Origin: Gemmatimonadota bacterium
GTDB taxonomy: Bacteria; Gemmatimonadota; Gemmatimonadetes; Palauibacterales; Palauibacteraceae
NCBI GenBank assembly: GCA_039587395.1
Contig: JBDHIQ010000090.1
Span: 1-16,007, forward strand
Direction: 5' to 3'
Length of the DNA: 16,007 nucleotides
The translations under genes and the position numbers were made by a program. Positions 2,627 through 16,007 of this stretch are shown here, one piece after another. Below the pieces are notes generated by a model. That model did not search any database. It saw nothing but the letters and a program-made list of their open reading frames with translations, and was not told the origin of the DNA. How positions within the stretch are numbered: the first letter of the stretch is position 1; every line of letters begins with the position of its first letter.

Positions 2627-3477
2627 TGTCGACATTCAGACTCTGGCCGTGTCTTGCCGGCGTGGTGTTTTTCGGCTGCCAGGCGCCTTACTCGGATGGT
2701 GGCACTGAATCCGAGGGTGGTACCGACTCCGGACCCGATTTCGCGGCCGTGTTCGACGGGTCCGGCGGACGCTGGGTGGACCTCAGCCACGCGTATTCGC
2801 AGGAGACCATCTATTGGCCGACGGACACGCTGGGCTTCCAGTTCGAGGAGCTGGCCTACGGGGACACCGGCGCCGGCTATTTCTACAGCGCCTACCGGCT
2901 CGCCACCGCAGAACACGGCGGGACGCATCTGGACGCTCCCATCCACTTTGCGCGCGACGGCGAAGCGGTCGACGCGATCCCGGTCGAGAGGCTGATTGGC
3001 CCGGCCGTAGTCCTTGATGTTCGCGACCACGCGACGGCCAATTACCAGGTCAGCGTGGCCGATCTCGAGACGTTCGAGCGCGACCACGGTCCGATCCCGA
3101 CCGACGCAATCCTACTGATCCGGACGGGTTGGGGCGATCGCTGGCCGAACCGCGAAGCGTACCTGGGGACCACGGTGGTGGGGCAGGAGGCGATACCCGA
3201 CCTGCACTTCCCCGGGTTGCACCCCGATGCCGCTCGCTGGCTCGTAGAGTACCGCTCGGTCGGTGCCGTAGGGATCGATACGCCCAGCATCGATTACGGC
3301 CAGTCCGGCGACTTCGCGGCGCATGTAGTGCTCTATGCCTCCGGCATCCCCGGGCTCGAGAATATCGCGAATCTGGGTACGCTCCCGGAGACGGGCAGCT
3401 TCGTGGTCGCGCTTCCGATGAAGATCGAAGGTGGCAGCGGGGCGCCTGTACGAATCGTCGCGTTCATCCCGGGCTGA
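2623..3477 (+). CDS. Cyclase-family protein (kynurenine formamidase-like metal-dependent hydrolase, PF04199-like) with an N-terminal signal peptide, possibly a lipoprotein
   Basis: 284-aa ORF. The motif HGGTHLDAPIHF matches the HxGTHxDxPxH metal-binding signature of the putative cyclase / KynB family. N-terminus MMSTFRLWPCLAGVVFFGCQAP is signal-peptide-like. Start is translationally coupled to the upstream gene by a 4-nt ATGA overlap. Confidence 0.8.
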   Translation: MMSTFRLWPCLAGVVFFGCQAPYSDGGTESEGGTDSGPDFAAVFDGSGGRWVDLSHAYSQETIYWPTDTLGFQFEELAYGDTGAGYFYSAYRLATAEHGGTHLDAPIHFARDGEAVDAIPVERLIGPAVVLDVRDHATANYQVSVADLETFERDHGPIPTDAILLIRTGWGDRWPNREAYLGTTVVGQEAIPDLHFPGLHPDAARWLVEYRSVGAVGIDTPSIDYGQSGDFAAHVVLYASGIPGLENIANLGTLPETGSFVVALPMKIEGGSGAPVRIVAFIPG

Positions 3478-3506
3478 CGGCCCGGGGGCGCTGCTTGTAG
3501 CACCCC

Positions 3507-3522
3507 GCGAGGGCTGCCTCGC
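3507..3522. terminator. Short GC hairpin (GCGAGG-GCTG-CCTCGC) between the convergent cyclase and DUF4440 genes; possible bidirectional terminator, no U-tract
   Basis: 6-bp perfect inverted repeat with a 4-nt loop, lying in the 49-bp gap between stop 3477 (+) and stop 3527 (-). Confidence 0.2.
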
Positions 3523-3526
3523 TGGC

Positions 3527-3982
3527 TCAGGGATCCTGTCCGCAGTCACAGGGTGGACACCCCTTGTCGAACACCACTCGCCAGCGGCCATCGGCCTCGA
3601 GCCGCCACACGGAGTTGAACGTGCCGACTCGCTGTCCATCCGGCGTCCGAACCGGTCCACTGCTCAGCGCCAGGGTGCCGTTATCGAGCACCTCGACTTG
3701 CTCCGGCTCCCACGAGAACGGTGCCGTGTCCCCCTGGAAGAAAGGGCTCCAACCCGCCCTCACCGCGTCGATTCCCCGCAAGACGTTCAGGCCGCCGAAG
3801 AACACCGCGTCTTCCGCAACGTGAGACAGGAAGGCCTCGAGATCCCGATCGGCCATCGTCCTGGCAAAAGCCGTCTCGGCCGACCGGACCTGGTCGGCCA
3901 GATCCTCGGGCGTCTGACTCTCCGCAGGTCCAGCGGTCAGAACGGATCCGACCACCAACAGAAGTATGCACGCGGCTCTCAT
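3527..3982 (-). CDS. Secreted DUF4440/SnoaL-like (NTF2-fold) protein, paralog copy 1, with C-terminal CPPCDC cysteine cluster
   Basis: The ORF track extends to 4108, but I place the start at Met 3980-3982 (MRAACILLLVVGSVLTAGPAESQ), giving a signal peptide directly parallel to that of copy 2. Body motifs VRSAETAFARTMADRDLEAF...AVFFGG...AGWSPFF fit the DUF4440/SnoaL-like NTF2 fold. C-terminus is FDKGCPPCDCGQDP. Confidence 0.75.
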   Translation of the reverse strand: MRAACILLLVVGSVLTAGPAESQTPEDLADQVRSAETAFARTMADRDLEAFLSHVAEDAVFFGGLNVLRGIDAVRAGWSPFFQGDTAPFSWEPEQVEVLDNGTLALSSGPVRTPDGQRVGTFNSVWRLEADGRWRVVFDKGCPPCDCGQDP

Positions 3983-4100
3983 AAGCTCTATCCGGTAACT
4001 GAAGTACGTCGCCAAGGTTGAGGTCCACCTGCAGAGGTTATCGCCAGCTCTTTCAAGATAAGGATGCCGAAACCTGACCGCGGGCGCACGCGAGCATGCG

Positions 4101-5240
4101 CTACTCACCTGCGTCGACCGACGGATTCTCGGCCTCGTTAGCCTGCCGAGTCTCCGCCTCGGCGATCGCGTCCTTGCCGAACGCGGTCAGACCGCCCAGC
4201 GCACCGAGGCCCATTGTCTCCACCGCCGTCGAAGGCACGATGATCATCGAGCCTTTCTGCCGCAGCCCCTCGTACACCATGTTCATCGCCCGCAGGTGCA
4301 GGGCAACGGGGTTGTCGCGGTAGTGTTCCGATGCGCTGGCGAACTTCTCGGCGATCTCCGTCTCGGCCGTGCCCAGGATGATCCGGCTCTGGCGCTCGCG
4401 TTCGGCCTGTGCCTGGCGCGACATGGCGTCTTCCAGGCCCTTCGGTATGATGATGTCGCGGATCTCCACGGCCTGCATCGTGACCCCCCAGCCGCTGGTC
4501 TTCTCTTCCAGTAGCGTCTGGATCTCAAGCCCCAGGCGGTCGCGCTCCGACAGCAGGATGGCCAGGTCGTTCTTGCCGATGGCATTCCGCAGTGCCGTCT
4601 GCGCCGACAGCACCACTGCCTCGTCGAAGTGCTCGACCTCCAGCACCGCTTTCTGCGCGTCCCACACCATCCAGAACGCGATGGCATCCACGTTCACCGG
4701 CACCGTGTCCGCCGTCAGCGTGGTCTCGGCGCTGAAATCCGTCACCCGGATCCGCTGGTCGACGAATTGTGCCACCTTGTCGATGATCGGCACGATCAGG
4801 AAGAGACCGGAGGTCCGAATTCCGCGGAAGCGGCCAAGGCGCAGTAGCACCGCCCGCTCCCACTGGTAGGCAATCTGTACAGATGGAGCGACGATCACGG
4901 CGATCACCGCCGTGATCAGGAGCACCTCGCTCTCAGGTCGCAGCTCCAGGAAGATCATTAACGCGTCCGCCGTGCCCAGTAGCACCACCCATTCCCACAT
5001 CTGCCCGAGCCGGAACAGAGTCGACAGCGCAAGTGCCGATCCCAGGGCCAGGGCGACTGCCGTCACCGAGAACGAGTACACGTTCAGGTGCACGACCAGC
5101 CCCGCCACGTATATCGCCACGAGGATCAACGCGTTCAGTGGCGAGAAACGGAAGTCGGCACGCATTGTGGCAGAGAACCTCTCCAGCGAAGGTCCCGGCC
5201 TCGCGCGGCCGGATCCTGCCCTACGAGACGGCCGGTTCAT
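4101..5240 (-). CDS. SPFH/band-7 (stomatin/prohibitin-like) membrane protein with an N-terminal multi-TM extension
   Basis: 379-aa ORF. Several hydrophobic helices at the N-terminus (LILVAIYVAGLVVHL, AVALALGSALALSTLF, LLITAVIAVIVAP) are followed by the SPFH core: YQWERAVLLRLGRFRGIRTSGLFLIVPIIDKV ... VTMQAVEIRDIIIPKGLEDAMSRQAQAERERQ. The start overlaps the GntR stop (ATGA at 5237-5240). An alternative start is Met at 5165. Confidence 0.8.
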   Translation of the reverse strand: MNRPSRRAGSGRARPGPSLERFSATMRADFRFSPLNALILVAIYVAGLVVHLNVYSFSVTAVALALGSALALSTLFRLGQMWEWVVLLGTADALMIFLELRPESEVLLITAVIAVIVAPSVQIAYQWERAVLLRLGRFRGIRTSGLFLIVPIIDKVAQFVDQRIRVTDFSAETTLTADTVPVNVDAIAFWMVWDAQKAVLEVEHFDEAVVLSAQTALRNAIGKNDLAILLSERDRLGLEIQTLLEEKTSGWGVTMQAVEIRDIIIPKGLEDAMSRQAQAERERQSRIILGTAETEIAEKFASASEHYRDNPVALHLRAMNMVYEGLRQKGSMIIVPSTAVETMGLGALGGLTAFGKDAIAEAETRQANEAENPSVDAGE

Positions 5241-6282: not shown

Positions 6283-8456
6283 GCGCGCGACGAGGGAGCG
6301 TGGACTTCGCGGATCTGGCCCGCGATGACGCACGGAAGCCGCCCGCCGACCAGCCCTTAGCCATGGACCGACGCAACTTCGTCAAGGTGCTGGGTGGCGG
6401 TATTGTCGTCCTGTTCACGCTCAATGACCGGATCCTGTTCGCGCGGCAGGACTGGGGCCAGGACAGGCCCACCAATCCCAACGCATACCTGAGGATCGGC
6501 AAAGACGGACGGGTGACCATCTTCACCGGCAAGATCGAGATGGGGCAGGGGATCCACACCTCGCTCGGCCAGATGGCTGCGGAGGAGCTGAGGGTTTCCC
6601 ACGAATCCATCGACATGGTCATGGGTGATACCGACCTGTGCCCCTGGGATATGCTTACCGTCGGGTCGCTGACCACGCGCTTCACCGGCCCGGTTCTGCG
6701 TGCCGCGGCCGCCGAGGCGCGCGAGATCATGATCGACCTGGCCGCAGACCACCTGGGAGTCGGTCGCGAACAGCTCGGTGTCGAGGACGGAGTCATCTTC
6801 GTCGTGGGTGCCAGGGCTCGGACGATTTCGTATGCCGAACTCGCCGGGGGCAAGGAGATCGTCCGGACGCTGGATCGAGAAGCGATGCTCCGGTCGGTGT
6901 CCGAGTTCACCGTCATGGGCCAGTCGACGCCGCGCGTCGATGCGATCGACAAGGTCACCGGAAAAGCACAGTACACAGGCGACATCCGATTGCCGGGCAT
7001 GCTCTACGGCAGGCTGGTCCGACCGCCGTCGCTGGCCGGGGAGATGACCGGGGTCGACACCTCGGCCGCCGAGGCCATGGACGGTGTGATCGTCGTCCAG
7101 GAAGAGGACCTGGTCGCGCTGCTGCACGAAGATCCGGAGATGGCCGAACGAGCCCTGCAGGCCGTCGAGGCCGAGTTCCATGTGCCGGAATCGGACCTGA
7201 CCAACGAGACCATCTTCGATCACCTGGTGCGCGTGGCTCCGGATCCCGATGTACAGGACCCGCGCGGCAGCCTCGCCGAGGGCGAGCGCATGGCCACCCA
7301 ACTGTTCGAGGAGACGTACCTGGACGGCTATGTGGCGCACGCGCCCATGGAGCCGCACACGGCGCTGGCCAACGTTGAGGACGGCAAGCTGACGGTCTGG
7401 GCCTCCACGCAGGGCCCGTTCTCCCTCAAGGACTTGCTGGTGCGGCAGTTCAGCCTGGAGCCGCACCGGGTAAGGGTCATCACGCCGTTCGTAGGTGGTG
7501 GCTTCGGCGGCAAGACCAGCAATTCCCAGGCGGTCGAGGCGGCGACACTGGCCCGGGCAACGGGCAAACCCGTGATGGTCGCCTGGACTCGCGCCGAGGA
7601 GTTCCTGTACGACCGGTTCCGGCCGGCCGCGGTCGTCAAGATCCGCTCCGGGATCGACGACGCCGGCAAGATCTGTCTGTGGGACTACCACCTCTTCTTC
7701 ACGAATGCCCGCGGGTCGGAGATGATCTACGACGCGCCGCACAGCGCCATCAAGGTTGCGGGCGGTGGGTGGCGCAGCCTGCCGGGGAGCCATCCTCTGT
7801 TCACGGGAGCCTGGAGAGCCCCCGGCGCCAGCACGAACGTGTTCGCCAAGGAGTCCCACATCGACGTGATGGCGGCAGCGGCCGGCGTGGATCCGCTAGA
7901 GTTCCGTCTCGCCAATACCTCCGATTCGCGGGCGCGCAGCGTGCTGACGGCCGTAGCCGACCGTTGTGGCTACCAGCCCGCCGCGGCGCCGAGCGGCCGC
8001 GGGATCGGCATGGCGTGCGGGCTCGACTCGGAGACGTACGTGGCGCACATCGTGGAGGTGGACGTGGACCGGTCAAGCGGCCAGGTGCGGGTGAAACGGG
8101 TCACGTGTGCACAGGACATGGGCGTTGTCGTCAATCCCGATGGAGCCCTGATGCAGGCCGAGGGCTGCATCATGATGGGGCTTGGCTATGCGCTCACGGA
8201 GGACGTGCGGTTCCGGGGTGGGGAAGTGCTGGATCGCAACTTCGACACCTACGAGTTGCCGCGCTTCTCGTGGCTGCCGGAGATCGACGTCGTCCTGGTG
8301 GAGAACAACGATCTCCCGCCGAAAGGTGGCGGCGAGCCGGCCATCATCTGCATGGGGGCGGCCATCGCCAACGCGATCTACGATCTCACAGGCGCCCGGC
8401 TGTTGCAGCTGCCGATGAACCCGGAGAGCGTGAAAGCGGCGCTGGCGGCGATCTGA
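6279..8456 (+). CDS. Molybdopterin-binding large subunit of a xanthine dehydrogenase-family enzyme (IorB / aldehyde dehydrogenase beta-like) with twin-arginine (Tat) signal
   Basis: Tat motif MDRRNFVKVLGGGIVVLF. Conserved IGKDGRVTIFTGKIEMGQGIHTSLGQMAAEELRV and the C-terminal Mo-cofactor domain are present. The start is ambiguous. The ORF-track Met at 6210 lies inside the upstream gene. Met 6279 has a purine-rich SD and ATGA coupling. Met 6363 would put the RR motif at the extreme N-terminus. Confidence 0.85.
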   Translation: MSARRGSVDFADLARDDARKPPADQPLAMDRRNFVKVLGGGIVVLFTLNDRILFARQDWGQDRPTNPNAYLRIGKDGRVTIFTGKIEMGQGIHTSLGQMAAEELRVSHESIDMVMGDTDLCPWDMLTVGSLTTRFTGPVLRAAAAEAREIMIDLAADHLGVGREQLGVEDGVIFVVGARARTISYAELAGGKEIVRTLDREAMLRSVSEFTVMGQSTPRVDAIDKVTGKAQYTGDIRLPGMLYGRLVRPPSLAGEMTGVDTSAAEAMDGVIVVQEEDLVALLHEDPEMAERALQAVEAEFHVPESDLTNETIFDHLVRVAPDPDVQDPRGSLAEGERMATQLFEETYLDGYVAHAPMEPHTALANVEDGKLTVWASTQGPFSLKDLLVRQFSLEPHRVRVITPFVGGGFGGKTSNSQAVEAATLARATGKPVMVAWTRAEEFLYDRFRPAAVVKIRSGIDDAGKICLWDYHLFFTNARGSEMIYDAPHSAIKVAGGGWRSLPGSHPLFTGAWRAPGASTNVFAKESHIDVMAAAAGVDPLEFRLANTSDSRARSVLTAVADRCGYQPAAAPSGRGIGMACGLDSETYVAHIVEVDVDRSSGQVRVKRVTCAQDMGVVVNPDGALMQAEGCIMMGLGYALTEDVRFRGGEVLDRNFDTYELPRFSWLPEIDVVLVENNDLPPKGGGEPAIICMGAAIANAIYDLTGARLLQLPMNPESVKAALAAI

Positions 8457-8474: not shown

Positions 8475-10837
8475 CTACTCGGATCTCAACGCGACCACCG
8501 GATCCACACGCGTGGCTCGCCGGGCAGGAACCGCGATGGCCGACAGCGACACGGCGAGCAAGATCGCCACGACGGCGCCCAGCGTGGCGGGATCCGTGGC
8601 GCCGACGCCGTAGAGCAGACCGCCCAGGGTTCGAGCCAGGAGAGCCGAGGCTGCCAGGCCCAGGCCGGCTCCGACCAGTACCGGACGCATCCCCTGGCCA
8701 ATGACCAGGCGGAGTACGTCGCTCGACTCCGCACCGAGCGCCATGCGTATCCCTGTCTCATGCGTTCGCCGGCTCACGGAGTAGCTGATCACGCCATATA
8801 TCCCGACGGTTGCCAACAACAAGGCTACCAGGGAGAAGACCCCACGGGAAGCGCCGGATCAAATCTACGGACCTCCGCTCGCAGCAAAGTCAGCAGTGCC
8901 TCGCCCGCTGTGCGACTGCGCACGACCATGGAAAGGCCTCCGCTCCACGGGACCTGTGCGTAGGGGACGTACATCGTGGGTGTCGATTCTTCGCGAAGCG
9001 TATTGTGTCTGACGTCTGCCACGACACCCACAATTCGACGGGCGCTTCCATGCACCATCAGCCGACGTCCGAACGGGTCATCCGCGGGAAGGTACGTCCG
9101 GGCAAACGTCTCGTTGACGATGAGGACCTCTTCGCTGTCCGATCGGTCCCGATCCTCGAATGGGCGCCCGCTCACCAGGCGTATCGCCATCGCGTCGAAG
9201 TACCCGGGTGTCACCATGCTGAAGTTGGCGCCACGGTACATATCAGGTGTGGGATCGGCCTCGCCCTCGAAGACGAAGCCAGTTCCCTGTCTGTCGGCAG
9301 CCAACGGTACATCGTAGATGAATCCGCTCGCCTCGACGGCAGGAAGCGCTGCGAGTCTTGCTTCGAGAGAACGAAAGGCCGCCACGCGATCGGACACCTC
9401 TTGATACCGGGTCTCGGGGAGACTCACTCGCATGGTGACGGCGTTCCGTGCTTCGAATCCCATGTCCACCGTGCGCAGTCGCACCAGGCTCTGAATCAGC
9501 AAGCCGGCGCCGACCAGGAGCACCAACGACATCGCCACCTCGGCCGCGACCAGCGTGGACCGGAGACGTCCACCTTGCCTGCCCTCGCCGCCCGATCGGC
9601 CTCCCTCTCGAAGACTCTGCCCCAGTTCTGCGGATCGTCGCCGAAGAGCTGGAACCAGCCCGAAGAACAGACCGGTGAGCAGCGACACGGCTACCGTGAA
9701 GAGAACCACCGTGGCATCGAGCCCCGCCTCCCCCAGCCGCGGCACGTTCGGAGGAGCCATGCGCACGATGAACCGGAGGCCGACCACGGCGAGAACGAGA
9801 CCCAGCGCTCCTCCCAGCACCGAAAGCAGAAGGCTCTCGGTAAGCAGTTGTCGCGCCAGCCGGGCGCGACCCGCACCGAGCGCGGCCCGGACCGCAAGCT
9901 CACGCTGTCGGGCCGCGCCCTTGGCCAGTAGGAGGTTGGCTACGTTCACACAGGCGATCAGGAGTACGAGCGCCACCGAGCCAAACAAGACGAGGAGCTG
10001 GGCGCGGACCTCCCCCACCACCTGCTCTTCCAACGGAACGAGGACAACCGACCAGTCCTCGTTCGAGTCCGGGTACTGATCCGCCAGACGGCTCGCGAGC
10101 GCTCGCATCTCGGCTTGCGCTCGAGCTATTGCTTCATCGTCCCGGAGCCGGCCTATGACCGTCAGGAAGTGGGCACCTCTGTTCCCGTTTCGGAAGTCGC
10201 GAGCGAAGGGGATCCAGATGTCCGCCTGGCGTGTACTCGCGGTCCCTTCCTCGATAATCGGCGGTGGAAACTCGAAGCCAGCTGGCATCACCCCTGCAAT
10301 CGTGTGCAGCCTTCCGTCGATACGAATCGACTGCCCGATCGCGTCTGTATCTCCGCCGAATCGGGATTGCCACAGCCGGTGGCTGAGAAGCGCTACCGGC
10401 GCCGCGCCGGGTACGTCGTCATCGGGTTCGAACAAGCGCCCGCCCACGGGATCGACGCCGAGCACGTGATGCAGACTGGCCGTCACTTCCGCACCGAACA
10501 GGGCATCGGTTTCGCCGTCCAGGTCCAGAAAAAACCGCTTTTCGTTGTATGCACCAATTGCTTCCAGCGCGGTTCCTTCCGACTGCCAGTCCTGGTAATT
10601 GGGAGGGGAGGCGTACATGGTGGGAAGGCTGCGCTCCAGGCTTTGCTCCCACACCACGACCAGTTCCTGGGGAGATTCGTAGGGGAGAGGCTGAAGCAGG
10701 ATCGAGTTTACCACCGAAAAGATCGCGCTTGTGGCTCCGATACCCAGCGCCAGTGCGCCCGCTGCAACTGCCGTGAAGCCGGGATTGCGTCGCAGCAGAC
10801 GTATCCCGTGTCGAAGGTCCTGCCAGAGTGCTTCCAT
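8475..10837 (-). pseudogene. ADOP-family (duplicated FtsX/MacB-like) ABC transporter permease, interrupted by a -1/+1 frameshift between 8828 and 8860; either an authentic pseudogene or a sequencing indel
   Basis: The 670-aa ORF 8825..10837 begins MEALWQDLRHGIRLLRRNPGFTAVAAGALALGIGATSAIFSV, the ADOP N-terminal signature, and contains the first FtsX TM bundle and a second periplasmic domain. It ends ...EVRRFDPALPVGSSPW. The 115-aa ORF 8475..8822, in another frame, carries the final FtsX helices. Its frame extended upstream reads SGASRGVFSLVALLLATVGIYGVISYSVSRRTHETGIRMALGA. Combined length is about 787 aa, consistent with the family. A strong GGAGGA SD lies 5 nt upstream of the ATG. Confidence 0.7.
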
Positions 10838-10951
10838 CGATCCTCCAAACGCTACATCGGTTGTAGAACCATGTACTTGGATGAAGCAGCCGGACTGATA
10901 GTTGGGGGTCAGTCGACCTGGAACGGAGAGAGGGAGGACGCTGCCCCGGAT

Positions 10952-11617
10952 CTAGCCCCCTTCCAGCTCACCCAGCGCCGCCAGGATGTCAGCGTGCTCC
11001 GGCCGGATGCGGTAGTTCACCTCCGTGAACTTCCAGTGGACCCGGCCGTCCCTGTCGATCACGTACACGGTCGGGTGAGGGATGGCGCGTCCGCGGGCGT
11101 CATCTGCGTTGAACAGCCCGTACCGCTTGATGATGGCGGCCATCGGATCGGACAAAAGCGGGTAGTCCAGAACGTATCCGTCATTCTCGCTCGCGACCCT
11201 GTCGATCATCAGCTGGAGATCGGCCGGTCCGTCGGACGATATGGCCAGAAGCTCCGTGCGCTCACGCTGCTCTGGTGTCAGGAGGTCTCGCAGCTCCCCG
11301 AGCTGCTTTGCACAGTACGGTCACCAGTGGCCGCGGTAGAAGACCAGGACGACGTTCTTCTGACCGCGGTATCCGGAGAGCGTGATGGCCTCGCCGTCTC
11401 TCGACATCGCGGTGAAGTCCGGCGCCAGGTCACCCGCGGACACCCGCTCCAGGTCGGTGGCCGGCAGGTCGTGACCGTCCACGGGTCCCAGCACGACTTC
11501 CTGTACCTCTTCCGCCTGCTGATCGGCAGGCTCCTCGGCTCGTTCCTCCTGCGCGCAGCCGGCCAGCCCTGCCAGGAAGGCCGTGCAGAGGGTCAGCGCG
11601 GCGGCCCCCGCCCTCAT
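10952..11617 (-). CDS. Thioredoxin-fold AhpC/TSA-Redoxin family thiol:disulfide oxidoreductase lipoprotein with selenocysteine (TGA at 11321-11323) in a U-P-Y-C active site; predicted selenoprotein, 221 aa
   Basis: ORF-track pieces 11321..11617 (...GQKNVVLVFYRGHW) and 10952..11209 are in the same frame. The stretch 11210-11320 in between is open and lacks only a Met. Translating through TGA gives FYRGHW-[TGA]-PYCAKQLGELRDLLTPEQRERTELLAISSDGPADLQLMIDRVAS..., the canonical FYRGxWCPYC redoxin motif with TGA in place of the first Cys. The N-terminus has a lipobox (FLAGLAGC). The start overlaps the upstream gene stop (ATGA). Confidence 0.7.
11290..11306 (-). promoter_or_regulatory. Candidate bacterial SECIS hairpin: mRNA 5'-GCAGCUC-GGG-GAGCUGC-3', stem starting 14 nt 3' of the UGA, G-only apical loop
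   Basis: Perfect 7-bp GC-rich inverted repeat seen directly. The UGA-to-apical-loop spacing (21 nt) is in the range I recall for bSECIS elements (about 16-37 nt). The loop/bulge details of a canonical SelB-binding element are not verified. Confidence 0.35.
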
Positions 11618-12729
11618 CGATCCAACCTCACCAGGGCATCCCCCAGTCCCGTCAGGTACACCGGACCGCGTCCCTGGCTGATGATCACCCCGGTGACGGG
11701 GCCGGGCAGCGGGGCCCAGGAATCCGGCGTGAACAGTTCCAGCCGGGGGGTTCCGGACTCGCCGCGGCGGGCGAATTCCTCAGCCGCCTCCTGCTGAGCG
11801 GGCGTCAAAGAGCGAAAAGCGGTATGGCGCTCACCGGTCTCCGTGTCGACCATCAGCAGTTTGTTCGTGAGTGGCGCCGCGATCCACAGGTATCCTTCAC
11901 CGTCCAGCTCGAGGTTGTCCGGCTCGACGCCGTCCACAAATACCGAGCGCTCGCTCAACCGCCCCGTGTCCAGATCGACGCGATAGCGCAGCACGCGGCC
12001 TCCCATCGTTTCGGACACGTACAGGTGGCCGCTCGTCTCATCAATCGCCACGCCGTTGGCGAAGTACAGGGAGTCCACCAGGACCTCGGCCTCGGCGGCA
12101 AGACCATCGCCCTGCATGCCGAGCCGGAGCAGCGCACCCTCCGGCGCGGGGATGTCCACCGTCTCCCACATGCGTGCCTCGCCGGCTTCAGGGGTGTTGT
12201 GCGCGCTCTGGGTGAACCAGATCGCCCCCCTCGAGTCCCGGACTGCCGTGTTGACGCCATAGCGGTGCTGGTAGACCCGTTCGGTGTGGCCGGTCGCCAC
12301 CTCCACGCGGTAGATCCCGCCGTGGAAGATGTCCGCGACCAGCAGGTGCGTCCCGCCGGGCTCGAGCGAGACTCCGTTGGCGCCGCCGCTGTGCTCCGGT
12401 GGGCTGTGGACATACCCGGCCGCCACCATCTCCCCGAACGGGGCGCTGCTGCCGTCGACCCCGACCAGACGCAGCCCGTGGATCTGATCGCCCACGATCA
12501 GGCGGCCGTCAGGCAGCGCGACGCCGTCCTCCGGGCGCACGAGCGAGCGGTCGATTGGAAAGATCGCGCTGGAGTCGTACTGCCACTGCGGCAGCGTCGC
12601 GACATCGCTCGCGCCTTCGTCCCCCGTACCTTCATCACTCGTACCACCGGCGCAGCCGGCCACGAGGGGGAAACCTGCGGCAAACAACGCCATGGTCACA
12701 ATGACCCGGCAAGACCGATCCGAATTCAT
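11614..12729 (-). CDS. Six-bladed beta-propeller lipoprotein with NHL / SMP-30-gluconolactonase-like repeats
   Basis: The ORF track extends to 12912. I prefer Met at 12727-12729 (MNSDRSCRVIVTMALFAAGFPLVAGCAGG), which gives a lipoprotein signal with an LVAGC lipobox. Repeated NHL-like units: GVSLEPGGTHLLVADIFHGGIYRV, ANGVAIDETSGHLYVSETMGGRVLRY, PDNLELDGEGYLWIAAPLTNKLLMV. The stop overlaps the redoxin start. Confidence 0.75.
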   Translation of the reverse strand: MNSDRSCRVIVTMALFAAGFPLVAGCAGGTSDEGTGDEGASDVATLPQWQYDSSAIFPIDRSLVRPEDGVALPDGRLIVGDQIHGLRLVGVDGSSAPFGEMVAAGYVHSPPEHSGGANGVSLEPGGTHLLVADIFHGGIYRVEVATGHTERVYQHRYGVNTAVRDSRGAIWFTQSAHNTPEAGEARMWETVDIPAPEGALLRLGMQGDGLAAEAEVLVDSLYFANGVAIDETSGHLYVSETMGGRVLRYRVDLDTGRLSERSVFVDGVEPDNLELDGEGYLWIAAPLTNKLLMVDTETGERHTAFRSLTPAQQEAAEEFARRGESGTPRLELFTPDSWAPLPGPVTGVIISQGRGPVYLTGLGDALVRLDR

Positions 12730-12917
12730 GGACTCTCCCTGGGGCTTCAGTTCAAAGACAGAGGAGTGTTGGTCTCCACCAGGCAGAATAGCGCCTCCGG
12801 CGTCATCTTGCCGCCTGATCCAGCCGTGGCAAACCTGTGAATACGCCAACCCCCGCACGGGGCCGACGGCCGAGCCCGTCAACCTCAGGGTTTTCACTTC
12901 AGAGACGGACACGGACC

Positions 12918-13200: not shown

Positions 13201-14286
13201 ATGGTGTTTCCCACCCTACACTGGCATGCCCTGAGTGACGGCCGGGTCCAGTGCGACATATGTCCGCGGGAGTGCCGCCTTCGCGACGGGCAGCGAGGGT
13301 TCTGTTTCGTGCGGGCAAACCGCGGTGGAGCTGTCGTCCTGACCACCTATGGCCGGTCCAGCGGATTCTGCGTGGACCCGATCGAAAAGAAGCCGCTCAA
13401 CCATTTCCTCCCGGGCACGCCGGTGCTGTCCTTCGGGACGGCGGGCTGCAACCTGGCCTGCAAGTTCTGCCAGAACTGGGACATTTCCCGGTCGCGGGAG
13501 ACGGACACTCTGGCCGATGCCGCATCGCCCGAGGTCATAGCCCGCGCCGCGGAGCGACTGGGCTGCCGGAGCGTGGCGTTCACCTACAACGACCCGGTGA
13601 TCTTCCACGAGTACGCGATCGACGTGGCGGGAGCGTGTCGCGAACGCGGGATCCGGACGGTCGCGGTGACCGCCGGCTACCAGAGCCGGGAGCCCAGGAC
13701 AGAGTTCTACGAGTACATGGACGCGGCCAACGTGGACCTCAAGGGCATCCGTGACGCGTTCTACTCGAAGCTCTGCGCCGGACACCTGGAGCCGGTTCTG
13801 GAGACGCTTCGCTACCTGCACCGGGAGACAGACGTCTGGCTGGAGGTCACCACGCTCCTGATCCCCGGACAGAACGATTCCGATGCGGATCTCGAGCAGG
13901 AGATGGACTGGATTGCCGAGCACCTGGGACCGGATGTGCCGCTGCACCTCACGGCATTTCACCCGGACTGGAGGATGCGGAACCTGCCTTCCACTCGCCC
14001 CGAAACGCTGAACCGGGCACGGCGCATTGGACGGGCACGCGGCCTGCGCCACGTCTATACGGGGAACGTGCACGACCGGGAAGGCCAGAGTACCTGCTGC
14101 CATGCGTGCGGAGAGCTGGTGATAGGCCGGGCCGGGTACTCGCTGGACGCGTGGAATCTGGACGACCGCGGGCGCTGCCGCGGATGCGGAGAGCGCTGCC
14201 CCGGGCGATTCGAGGCCGAGGCAGGGACCTGGGGCGCGCAGCGTCTTCCGGTGCGACTGGCAGCTTTCCGGGAGCTCGCGACATGA
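13201..14286 (+). CDS. amrS: AmmeMemoRadiSam system radical SAM enzyme (AmrS; PFL-activase-like radical SAM)
   Basis: 361 aa. The CNLACKFC CX3CX2C radical-SAM cluster motif is present. The N-terminal RVQCDICPRECRLRDGQRGFCFVRANRGG and the VDPIEKKPLNHFLPGTPVLSFGTAGCNLACKFCQNWDIS block match my recollection of the TIGR04337-type family. Confidence 0.9.
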   Translation: MVFPTLHWHALSDGRVQCDICPRECRLRDGQRGFCFVRANRGGAVVLTTYGRSSGFCVDPIEKKPLNHFLPGTPVLSFGTAGCNLACKFCQNWDISRSRETDTLADAASPEVIARAAERLGCRSVAFTYNDPVIFHEYAIDVAGACRERGIRTVAVTAGYQSREPRTEFYEYMDAANVDLKGIRDAFYSKLCAGHLEPVLETLRYLHRETDVWLEVTTLLIPGQNDSDADLEQEMDWIAEHLGPDVPLHLTAFHPDWRMRNLPSTRPETLNRARRIGRARGLRHVYTGNVHDREGQSTCCHACGELVIGRAGYSLDAWNLDDRGRCRGCGERCPGRFEAEAGTWGAQRLPVRLAAFRELAT

Positions 14287-15140
14287 AGATCCGGGAGCCG
14301 GCCGTTGCGGGGCTGTTCTATCCGGCGGATCCGGATGAGCTGCGGGAGATGCTCTCGGCCCTGCTGGCCGCCGAGTCGTCGCGGGCGCCAGCGCGCACGG
14401 GGACTGCGTCCCTCAGGCGCCGGACTGTGCGGAAGGCCGTGATTGCCCCTCACGCCGGGTACGTCTACTCCGGTCCGGTCGCAGCCAGCGCCTACCGCTG
14501 GTTGGCCGGGATGGACCGGCGCCTGGCCTCGGGCGGGGACGACCGCATCGCCTCCGGGGTGATCCTCATCGGACCCTCCCACCGGGTCGCGTTCCGGGGG
14601 CTCGCGCTCCCCGGAGCGGATGTGTTCGATACGCCGCTGGGCCGCGTGTCCGTGGACCGGGAAGCGTGCGATGCGCTCCTCGAGCTCCCGTTCGTGCACC
14701 AGCGAGACGACGCACACGCGGACGAGCACTCCCTGGAAGTCCACGTCCCCTTCCTACTGACTGTCTTCTCCGGGATCCGGATGGTCCCGATCGTCATCGG
14801 GGCGGCCGATGATGATGAGGTCGCGGAAGCGCTCCGCCTGCTGTGGGGCGGACCGGAGACGGTGATCGTCGCGAGCTCCGATCTCAGCCACTTCCTCCCG
14901 TACGCCGCCGCACAGCGCGCGGATCAGGCCACCGCCCGGGCCATCGAGGAACTGCGGAGCGAGGCGGTGGGCTACAAGCAGGCCTGTGGATCTGCCGGGA
15001 TTCAGGGGCTCCTCGCCCTGGCCAGGGAACGAGGCCTGGCAGTCAGCACGCTAGACCTGAGAAACTCGGGCGACACGGCCGGTCCCAGGGACCGGGTGGT
15101 CGGCTACGGCGCATTCGGGATCGAGGAACAGGTTTCTTAG
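14283..15140 (+). CDS. amrB: AmmeMemoRadiSam system protein B (Memo1-like, AmrB)
   Basis: Start ATG 14283 overlaps the amrS stop (ATGA). MKIREPAVAGLFYPADPDELREML and VIAPHAGYVYSGPVAASAY are characteristic Memo-family motifs. The ORF-track upstream extension from 14106 is probably non-coding overlap with amrS. Confidence 0.85.
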   Translation: MKIREPAVAGLFYPADPDELREMLSALLAAESSRAPARTGTASLRRRTVRKAVIAPHAGYVYSGPVAASAYRWLAGMDRRLASGGDDRIASGVILIGPSHRVAFRGLALPGADVFDTPLGRVSVDREACDALLELPFVHQRDDAHADEHSLEVHVPFLLTVFSGIRMVPIVIGAADDDEVAEALRLLWGGPETVIVASSDLSHFLPYAAAQRADQATARAIEELRSEAVGYKQACGSAGIQGLLALARERGLAVSTLDLRNSGDTAGPRDRVVGYGAFGIEEQVS

Positions 15141-15161: not shown

Positions 15162-15608
15162 TCACTCTTCGCAGTTACACGGCGGGCACCCCTTGTCGAA
15201 CACGACCCTCCAGCGGCCATCGGCCTCCAGCCGCCACGTGGAGGTGAAGGTGCCCACCCTCTGCCCTTCCGGGTCGAATACCGGACCGCTGCTGAGCCCC
15301 AGGGTGCCGGACTCCAGCACCTCCACGTGCTCCGGCGCCCACGAGAACGGGGCCGCTTCCCCCTCGAAGAATGGACTCCAGCCTGCCTTCACGGCGTCCG
15401 CGCCCCGCAGCACCTGGCCGCCAAAGAACACCGCCTCTTCCGACACGAATGAGGCGAAGGCGTCCAGGTCGCGGTCGGCCATCGTCTGCGCAAACGCCGT
15501 CTCGGCAGACCGGACCTGTTCCGCCAGCTCCTCGGCCGTCTGGGACTGCGCCGGTCGGGGGAGCATGGCGGATGCGATCACCAACACACCAAAACACGCC
15601 AATTTCAT
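15162..15608 (-). CDS. Secreted DUF4440/SnoaL-like (NTF2-fold) protein, paralog copy 2, with C-terminal CPPCNC cysteine cluster
   Basis: Start Met at 15606-15608 (MKLACFGVLVIASAMLPRPAQSQ). It is about 75-80% identical at amino-acid level to copy 1 (VRSAETAFAQTMADRDLDAF...AVFFGG...AGWSPFFEGEAAPFSW...RVGTFTSTWRLEADGRWRVVFDKGCPPCNCEE). Nucleotide-level similarity is also evident. Confidence 0.75.
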   Translation of the reverse strand: MKLACFGVLVIASAMLPRPAQSQTAEELAEQVRSAETAFAQTMADRDLDAFASFVSEEAVFFGGQVLRGADAVKAGWSPFFEGEAAPFSWAPEHVEVLESGTLGLSSGPVFDPEGQRVGTFTSTWRLEADGRWRVVFDKGCPPCNCEE

Positions 15609-15800
15609 TCTCTCTACCGTCCCCTTCTGTGCCGTTTGCCGCCGTCTCGGTCGCGACGGGGTTGCGGCTGGCACTAACCGGTCTTTGCTGCGATCAACTC
15701 CACGGGAGCCACTCTGCCCTGAGAGATGTTCTCGATCATGTTCTGGACCTTCGTTGACGCGTTCTTTCCCATCAGGAGGTGCAATCCCAGTGGAGGCGGA

Positions 15801-16007
15801 CAGGCGCTCGAAGAACCCCAGGGCAAAATCACGTCGATTGCGCTCGTTCACCAACTCGAATCCTGCGCTGACCAGCGCGCTCTTGTAGTCGCCAGGCGCT
15901 GCCACCGAGCTTGTTTCAGGAACGGTGGCCCATGGCACGGGAAACAGGAGATCCTCGCTACCCACGCGCATGACATCATAGATGCCGAAGACACCGCCGG
16001 GCTTGAG
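15801..16007 (-). CDS. C-terminal part of a class I SAM-dependent methyltransferase-like protein (3'-partial in window; gene continues beyond 16007)
   Basis: Minus-strand translation from the window edge reads LKPGGVFGIYDVMRVGSEDLLFPVPWATVPETSSVAAPGDYKSALVSAGFELVNERNRRDFALGFFERL. The LKPGG motif and C-terminal region are typical of Methyltransf_11/25-like enzymes. The 3' boundary is uncertain because no stop codon separates it from DUF4440 copy 2 in this frame. Confidence 0.4.

Follow-up and report, generated by a model that had tools for sequence, protein, structure and literature searches.

The closest described counterparts of the protein considered here are the Prx-like thiol:disulfide oxidoreductases (PF00578), in which selenocysteine (Sec) forms the first residue of a UxxC motif. 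A 2026 review (PMC13188914) gives Geobacter sulfurreducens WP_010940744.1 as the example of this family, credited to its ref. 12, and lists the family as "predicted with high confidence." In the Sargasso Sea study (PMC1088965), the "Prx-like protein" was treated as a previously known family represented by 22 sequences, while the GOS study (PMC2398784) assigned 225 sequences to "Prx-like 1" (pfam00578, UxxC); by both studies, UxxC Prx-like proteins count among the more common selenoprotein families predicted in bacteria. A Prx-like UxxC selenoprotein has also been reported in the genomes of Geobacter, Syntrophus, and Desulfotalea. Gemmatimonadota were unmentioned as hosts of this family in a few papers on bacterial selenoproteins, and no claim of novelty is made for them.

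The window, by which is meant the whole stretch of 16,007 nucleotides that was analyzed, comes from a Gemmatimonadota bacterium and holds a redoxin gene that is divided by an in-frame TGA (Table 1). The original prediction had named Sec-for-Cys Prx-like proteins as a known class of bacterial selenoproteins, and this is borne out by a literature on the UxxC family that goes back to 2004-2005. On the sequence comparisons described below, the locus is very likely a true selenoprotein gene, with UGA-encoded Sec standing where a CxxC motif would have its first Cys.

Table 1. Features of the redoxin locus and its upstream neighbor
Feature	Position	Strand	Details and basis
Probable selenoprotein gene, complete	10952..11617	minus	ATG 11617..11615; 221 codons including Sec99; TAG 10954..10952
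In-frame UGA, predicted Sec codon (Sec99), first position of U-P-Y-C	11321..11323	minus	Alignment to WCP[YF]C
Cys102 codon (TGT), second residue of UxxC	11312..11314	minus	Alignment
Predicted lipoprotein signal peptide, residues 1-21 (MRAGAAALTLCTAFLAGLAG followed by C)	11555..11617	minus	Sequence pattern
AhpC/TSA domain (peroxiredoxin-type thioredoxin fold), residues 62-195, across the UGA	11033..11434	minus	Pfam
Candidate bacterial SECIS core, 7-bp stem GCAGCUC/GAGCUGC, apical loop GGG	11290..11306	minus	Consensus fit
SMP-30/gluconolactonase/LRE-like (SGL) gene, upstream context	11614..12912	minus	PF08450, E = 1.3e-21

A redoxin reading frame across a TGA codon

Translation of the complete gene gave the TGA as the sole internal stop, lying between VVLVFYRGHW and PYCAKQLGEL. 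The list of minus-strand open reading frames contained the fragments 11321..11617 (98 aa) and 10952..11209 (85 aa), and the coordinates first given for two same-frame fragments parted by one TGA were all correct. The GC content at third codon positions (GC3) was 0.86 on the 5' side of the TGA and 0.82 on the 3' side; the 37 codons that separate the TGA from the ATG at 11209, which gene callers left unassigned, had a value of 0.73. The expectation that gene callers would split the gene was confirmed by the public records, which carry products of 98 aa and 85 aa named "hypothetical protein" or "SCO1/SenC." The SGL gene, which the public calls list with a product of 359 aa, ends in a TGA that overlaps the start codon of the redoxin (ATGA), and because of this overlap the two genes are probably cotranscribed. 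The 432-aa and 245-aa open reading frames had no matching public record, and their called starts probably differ. The SGL, radical-SAM, Memo, and Mo-enzyme neighbors were all missing beside the Sec forms in the loci of other species, and no functional link was therefore taken from the gene context.

The family assignment was obtained from the joined product, written with Cys at position 99. The Pfam match to PF00578 (E = 3.1e-28; 98.6 bits against a cut-off of 26) runs across the TGA, in agreement with the proposed membership of the AhpC/TSA-Redoxin family, and PF08534 (Redoxin) was matched at E = 1.5e-20. A search of a protein collection returned 112 homologues, and the best 40 of the 112 were aligned. 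In approximately 35 Cys homologues of 41-56% identity, the TGA column corresponded to the leading Cys of W-C-P-[YF]-C, a nearly invariant motif, and the 122 codons 3' of the UGA could be aligned to the C terminus of the homologues. Both the predicted alignment to the first Cys of CPYC and the persistence of conservation to the C terminus were thus found. In alignment A3, comprising 51 homologues, position 99 was at least 90% Cys and C102 was invariant, and Pro182 was near-invariant across the family.

The TGA was reproducible. It was present in at least 11 contigs from assemblies of 7 JGI metagenome samples (3300041075, -78, -79, -80, -81, -83, and -86), whose loci were 99.5-99.97% identical to the window and carried the TGA in each case. 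In two contigs from other metagenomes (P0033 and P0034), the called product ends in FYRGHW, and the C-terminal part that comes next is called on its own; a further locus, L001, has TGA at this codon and a frame that runs on beyond it. A DNA pattern scan found FYRGxW-TGA-P[YF]C in at least 120 species-representative genomes, for a pattern of approximately 42 bits that is expected by chance approximately 0.3 times per 596-Gb genome collection. The hosts among the matches listed belong to the Acidobacteriota, Gemmatimonadota, Poribacteria, Binatia, Methylomirabilota, Dehalococcoidia, and several proteobacterial classes. The frame after the TGA was open for approximately 105-200 codons, the few shorter cases being due to the end of the locus or to masked sequence.

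The closest of the matches listed was from a Longimicrobiales metagenome-assembled genome (MAG) (L020; JANQME01), with 72% identity over 177 aa spanning the TGA and approximately 71% identity on either side of it. It was followed, again among the matches listed, by the Gemmatimonadota MAGs L062, L047, L071, and L023. Taken by themselves, these best hits would likewise place the window in the Gemmatimonadota, probably as a Longimicrobiales-like member. Against the closest Gemmatimonadota orthologues, including that of the Longimicrobiales and all with TGA, the dN/dS ratio 3' of the TGA was 0.20-0.38 at a dS of approximately 1, and the ratio 5' of the TGA was similar. The frame 3' of the UGA is, on these ratios, under purifying selection. 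TGA is also the stop codon of 9 of the 13 window genes, including the gene that overlaps the redoxin start, and a reassigned genetic code was ruled out by this count. Since UGA is the usual stop in the window, the decoding of UGA-99 must be local.

Hairpins downstream of the UGA

The original prediction described a perfect 7-bp GC hairpin 14 nt 3' of the UGA, and both its sequence and its position were correct. The element GCAGCUC-GGG-GAGCUGC at 11306..11290 begins 14 nt after the UGA, with 21 nt between the UGA and the loop, and when folded alone has a free energy of -10.1 kcal/mol. The bacterial SECIS (bSECIS) consensus given in a recent review comprises a loop of 3-9 nt, an upper stem of 4-16 bp, a UGA-to-loop distance of 16-37 nt, a G within the first two loop positions, and a minimum free energy (MFE) of -7.5 kcal/mol or lower. 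The window hairpin passes on every one of these points. A scan of 10900..11700 against Rfam, with E values up to 10, matched no SECIS model; its sole output was four matches to eukaryotic lncRNA, snoRNA, and sRNA models, attributed to chance. A 6-bp lower helix in the centroid structure, pairing CUGGUG (which includes the UGA) with CACCAG, was judged to be due to chance, as no CACCAG was seen by eye in L001 or L020.

The 76-nt fold of the region had a z score of +0.48 relative to dinucleotide shuffles, that is, no extra stability, and a stem of at least 7 bp was obtained in 16% of the synonymous-codon shuffles of the redoxin gene (p = 0.16). Furthermore, the Cys orthologue L250, which shares the peptide KQLGELR, has an identical 7-bp stem with the loop GGC in place of GGG, and another Cys orthologue (L249) has a 5-bp stem. 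The hairpin in this gene follows for the most part from that peptide and from GC-rich codons. As it is expected from peptide and codon usage, it is weak and nonindependent evidence for a SECIS in this gene. The claim that it is compatible with a bacterial SECIS was therefore upheld as to the consensus but not as independent proof, given the outcome of the synonymous shuffles and the stem of L250.

The case for a SECIS was strong at the level of the family, as judged from a comparison of Sec forms with a control of 121 Cys forms from metagenomes, which have TGY for TGA in the same motif. A strict version of the bSECIS consensus was passed by 70 of 122 Sec forms and by 5 of the 121 Cys forms (Fisher p = 3e-21). 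The median best stem was 6 bp in Sec forms versus 4 bp in Cys forms (p = 9e-25), and the mean MFE of the segment +9..+42 was -10.3 versus -5.6 kcal/mol (p = 1e-22). The excess of structure outlasted the synonymous-codon shuffle across the family, with a mean z score of -1.2 for Sec forms versus -0.2 for Cys forms (p = 5e-12). The loops of the Sec forms lie at fixed sites, being either AGUUG, AGUUA, or AGUU from +19 (16 nt past the UGA) or GGN at +23/24 (20-21 nt), while those of the Cys forms have no preferred site.

In the register of the window, 6 of 8 pairs were changed on both sides (G-C, C-G, U-A, and A-U) and the covariation score was reached by none of 500 shuffles, in a set that was picked for the best stem in this register and whose paired percentage is consequently inflated. 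The 9 closest Sec orthologues among the matches listed were picked by protein similarity alone, and each of the 9 forms a hairpin with 6 bp or more in the window register. The next protein group, from Pyrinomonadaceae and Blastocatellia, has the other register.

This comparison of Sec and Cys forms, with its two hairpin registers and its peptide-encoded hairpin in a Cys orthologue, bears on the origin of Cys-to-Sec switches. It is possible, but rather doubtful, that in the subfamily of the window protein the conserved [KQ]-Q-L-G-E-L-R in GC-rich codons supplies a "free" consensus-type SECIS, such that one change between TGY and TGA would switch between Cys and Sec. If this were true, it could account for the intermingling of Sec and Cys forms among close relatives. 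Alternatively, the hairpin of the Cys forms may be a fossil of an earlier Sec state.

Alternative readings of the interrupted gene

The doubt that is left about selenoprotein status goes mainly to the chance that the organism has no working Sec system. The Sec machinery would then have been lost or never present, and UGA-99 would terminate translation or allow weak read-through by a near-cognate tRNA (Trp or Cys), giving mostly a 98-residue fragment from a gene that is decaying or weakly functional. This is considered improbable. It is favored by the lack of selA, selB, selC (tRNA-Sec), and selD in approximately 45 kb of contig around the gene; that segment, the window, and 14 related loci contained no tRNA gene of any kind. 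However, sel genes are usually unlinked to their target genes, and their absence from approximately 45 kb therefore means little. It is also favored by the neighborhood scan, in which the redoxin gene was the only one affected and no further TGA-interrupted coding frame of high GC3 was found, and by a hairpin that is no more than peptide and codon usage would give. Against it stand the intact frame 3' of the TGA, with its low dN/dS ratio relative to orthologues that keep the TGA, and the GC3 that is still high past this codon. Furthermore, the redoxin gene has no second lesion in a near-identical population recovered from 7 samples, while a neighboring gene, by contrast, has a disabling deletion in one assembly.

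The same observations bear on the suggestion that a nonsense mutation (TGC or TGT to TGA) has turned the gene into a pseudogene or that the TGA is an error of sequencing or assembly. Only one base change separates TGY from TGA, and the public gene calls are indeed two fragments, but the TGA is present in every independent assembly and recurs at the same codon in far more species genomes than chance would provide. No other stops or frameshifts were seen. A pseudogene or error was deemed extremely unlikely and is effectively refuted by the recurrent TGA together with the purifying selection 3' of it. Two separate genes, encoding the 98-aa N-terminal protein and an 85-aa protein that starts at ATG 11209, would match the annotation by gene callers. 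This arrangement is hardly conceivable in view of the 37 codons from the TGA to that ATG (PYCAKQLGELRDLL...). Sec and Cys homologues alike conserve these codons in frame; the invariant Cys102 is among them, and their GC3 value is given above. One Pfam domain covers both parts, and from the modeled fold neither half would make a complete thioredoxin fold; the two-gene arrangement was refuted by the alignments. A single gene, very probably for a selenoprotein, is the preferred reading.

Predicted function and comparison with known systems

The product is in all likelihood an exported Prx-like thiol:disulfide oxidoreductase whose redox center would be U99-P-Y-C102. The proposal of a periplasmic or exported oxidoreductase was supported by pattern matching, which placed a lipobox, L18-A19-G20-C21, after a positively charged n-region (R2) and a hydrophobic core. 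The lipobox consensus is [LVI][ASTVI][GAS]C. Lipoboxes were also found in the orthologues L020 (LAGC), L062 (VSGC), L071 (VLAC), and P0033 (LAGC), and further orthologues have signals of the SPase I type or hydrophobic N termini. From these patterns, the protein is probably exported and anchored by a lipid.

The nearest solved structure by sequence was that of Mycobacterium tuberculosis AhpE (E = 2e-15). A structure model (pLDDT 86) was made for the Cys homologue P0001, which is 56% identical, as a stand-in for the joined product. It superposed on AhpE with a target-normalized TM score of 0.88 and a root mean square deviation of 1.8-2.0 Å, and in this model the Sec-equivalent Cys93 directly precedes the active-site helix 94-103. 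In the alignment to AhpE, Cys102 corresponds to the peroxidatic Cys45, Sec99 to Thr42, Arg95 to Pro38, and Pro182 to Arg116. The canonical peroxiredoxin signature (PxxxTxxC plus the catalytic Arg) is therefore lacking, C102 being the only one of these AhpE residues that is retained. According to the alignment, the Pro, Thr, and Arg of the peroxidases are absent and a thioredoxin-type U/CxxC pair is present instead. The UGA had been placed at the catalytic Cys; this holds in that it encodes the first position of the CxxC motif, but it is Cys102 and not Sec99 that aligns to the peroxidatic Cys of AhpE. No NCBIfam cut-off was reached by the product, the scores being 35.7 bits against 270 for PrxU (NF040737), 38.8 against 120 for SelL-related (NF040769), 45.2 against 170 for ResA (NF002854), and 20.6 against 230 for TlpA (NF047696).

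The following sequence of events is proposed. The ribosome would pause at UGA-99, and SelB-GTP carrying Sec-tRNA(Sec) would bind the hairpin at 11306..11290 and insert Sec. Once exported, the precursor would be cleaved and would receive an acyl group at Cys21. The periplasmic protein may then attack an oxidized substrate, which could be a disulfide, a sulfenate, or a peroxide, through its Sec99 selenolate, placed at the helix N-cap in the active site. The resulting Sec99-Cys102 selenenylsulfide would presumably be rereduced by a DsbD/CcdA-type electron shuttle in the membrane. The Cys orthologue P0014 adjoins a DsbD gene, and this neighborhood hints at the reductant.

The main value of the finding lies in a correction of annotation, by which a publicly split gene becomes one probable selenoprotein gene, along with a modest set of data on the placement of SECIS-type hairpins in the family. 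Many of the at least 120 species genomes that bear the motif are probably misannotated in the same way; split calls were observed for the window population and for the P0033 and P0034 contigs only. The gene also indicates that an uncultured Gemmatimonadota bacterium decodes Sec, and it would place a selenolate redox center on a predicted exported lipoprotein.

Among the systems with which the protein was compared, M. tuberculosis AhpE (Rv2238c; PDB 1XVW, 1XXU, and 4X0X), a 1-Cys peroxiredoxin, is the nearest by both sequence and fold. It differs in having a single Cys, whereas the window protein has a CxxC-type pair and a predicted export signal; AhpE is cytoplasmic. The Prx TxxU/PrxU (NF040737) and SelL-related (NF040769) proteins share the thioredoxin/peroxiredoxin fold and a Sec in the turn of the active-site helix. 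In Prx/PrxU the Sec replaces the peroxidatic Cys (TxxU), whereas in the window protein it lies three residues upstream (UxxC). The experimentally defined SECIS elements of Escherichia coli fdhF and fdnG resemble the window hairpin in being stem-loops within the coding region, right after the UGA, with a G opening a small apical loop, and all fit the general bSECIS consensus. They differ from the candidate in that there is no likeness of sequence and in that the candidate has no bulged U in its stem, which is a feature of the E. coli SECIS.

The window protein belongs to an already described selenoprotein family, the Prx-like UxxC proteins, and what is known of selenoproteins is unchanged by it. 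The likeness consists of PF00578, the UxxC motif, the CxxC of the Cys homologues, and a SECIS-type hairpin right after the UGA. The Sec form from a Geobacter MAG (L038), which was used as a proxy for the prototype WP_010940744.1, is 29% identical to the window protein (E = 3e-18), and identity to most other Sec forms is 20-40%. Relative to the other Prx-like UxxC proteins, that of the window falls in a distinct subfamily, whose hosts are Gemmatimonadota, Binatia, and some Acidobacteriota and which is marked by the N-terminal signal or lipobox, a GPxDG...TDLERV extension, and a C-terminal NY[RK]IRP motif.

Hairpins after the Sec and Cys codons

The Sec forms of the gene from other genomes (L009-L128), in which the motif carries TGA, were found to place the post-UGA hairpin in two main registers family-wide. 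In the first, the loop is AGUUG, AGUUA, or AGUU and starts 16 nt past the UGA (about 50 sequences), and the encoding peptides include RRQLAGF, NSELRSF, and LRQLADY. In the second, the loop is GGN and starts 20 to 21 nt past the UGA (about 40 sequences), corresponding to peptides such as QLGEL and NLELEAL.

Hairpins were also observed in two Cys orthologues, which have TGY at the same codon. In locus L250 (P0026) the 7-bp stem, GCAGCUC/GAGCUGC, is identical to that of the candidate SECIS in the window, with a loop of GGC, and its distance from the TGT equals the distance of the window stem from the TGA. This hairpin could represent a preadapted or fossil SECIS. The stem in locus L249 (P0014) is 5 bp.

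Coordinates of the features discussed
Feature	Location	Coordinates (strand)	Length
Cys orthologue P0026	L250	133..735	
Cys orthologue P0014	L249	3001..3621	
DsbD gene	L249	598..2787	729 aa
P0036, partial redoxin	L002	2367..2741	124 aa
N-terminal selenoprotein fragment	window	11321..11617	98 aa
1-Cys peroxiredoxin (AhpC-TSA + 1-cysPrx_C)	L003	within 3321..4913	218 aa
Pyr_redox_2 flavoprotein	L003	within 3321..4913	305 aa
MacB/FtsX-type ABC permease	window	8825..10837 (-)	670 aa
SnoaL/DUF4440-like gene	window	15162..15971	
Radical-SAM gene and Memo-like gene, side by side	window	13201..14286 (+) and 14106..15140 (+)	

Homologue neighborhoods and public annotation

The P0014 gene adjoins a divergent DsbD gene (DsbD_N, DsbD_TM, and Thioredoxin_7), and a thioredoxin gene lies nearby. 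At the edge of the same locus (6600..6621), a gene with a match to Sel_put (PF04328) was noted. P0036 contains only the C-terminal half of the redoxin, lacking the CxxC, preceded by a hydrophobic N terminus of its own. Its gene immediately follows a DinB_2 gene, with a reductive-dehalogenase gene close by. Truncation or rearrangement of a redoxin copy may account for P0036.

The N-terminal fragment is labeled "hypothetical protein" in public sources and, in one record, [quoted passage not shown] The latter is a misannotation, which arose because the selenoprotein gene was split.

Flanking genes and differences among assemblies

The 1-Cys peroxiredoxin and the Pyr_redox_2 flavoprotein, the latter possibly of the thioredoxin-reductase type, are encoded beyond the right end of the window, approximately 5 kb from the selenoprotein gene; redox-defense genes are therefore loosely clustered here.

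A 73-bp segment present in the contigs compared (L003-L007) is absent from the window between 8843 and 8844, producing a frameshift in the ABC permease gene, such that the window encodes a truncated ORF of 670 aa versus 811 aa in the other contigs. Either the gene has been disabled by a genuine deletion in one strain, or the gap is an artifact of assembly. The stretch at 15800..15913, inside or beside the SnoaL/DUF4440-like gene, also varies in length between same-population assemblies (113 bp in the window, 139 bp in L003, and 1 bp in L005).

The radical-SAM and Memo-like ORFs overlap as listed, and the corresponding public calls are 304 and 285 aa. Their pairing resembles the AmmeMemoRadiSam system.
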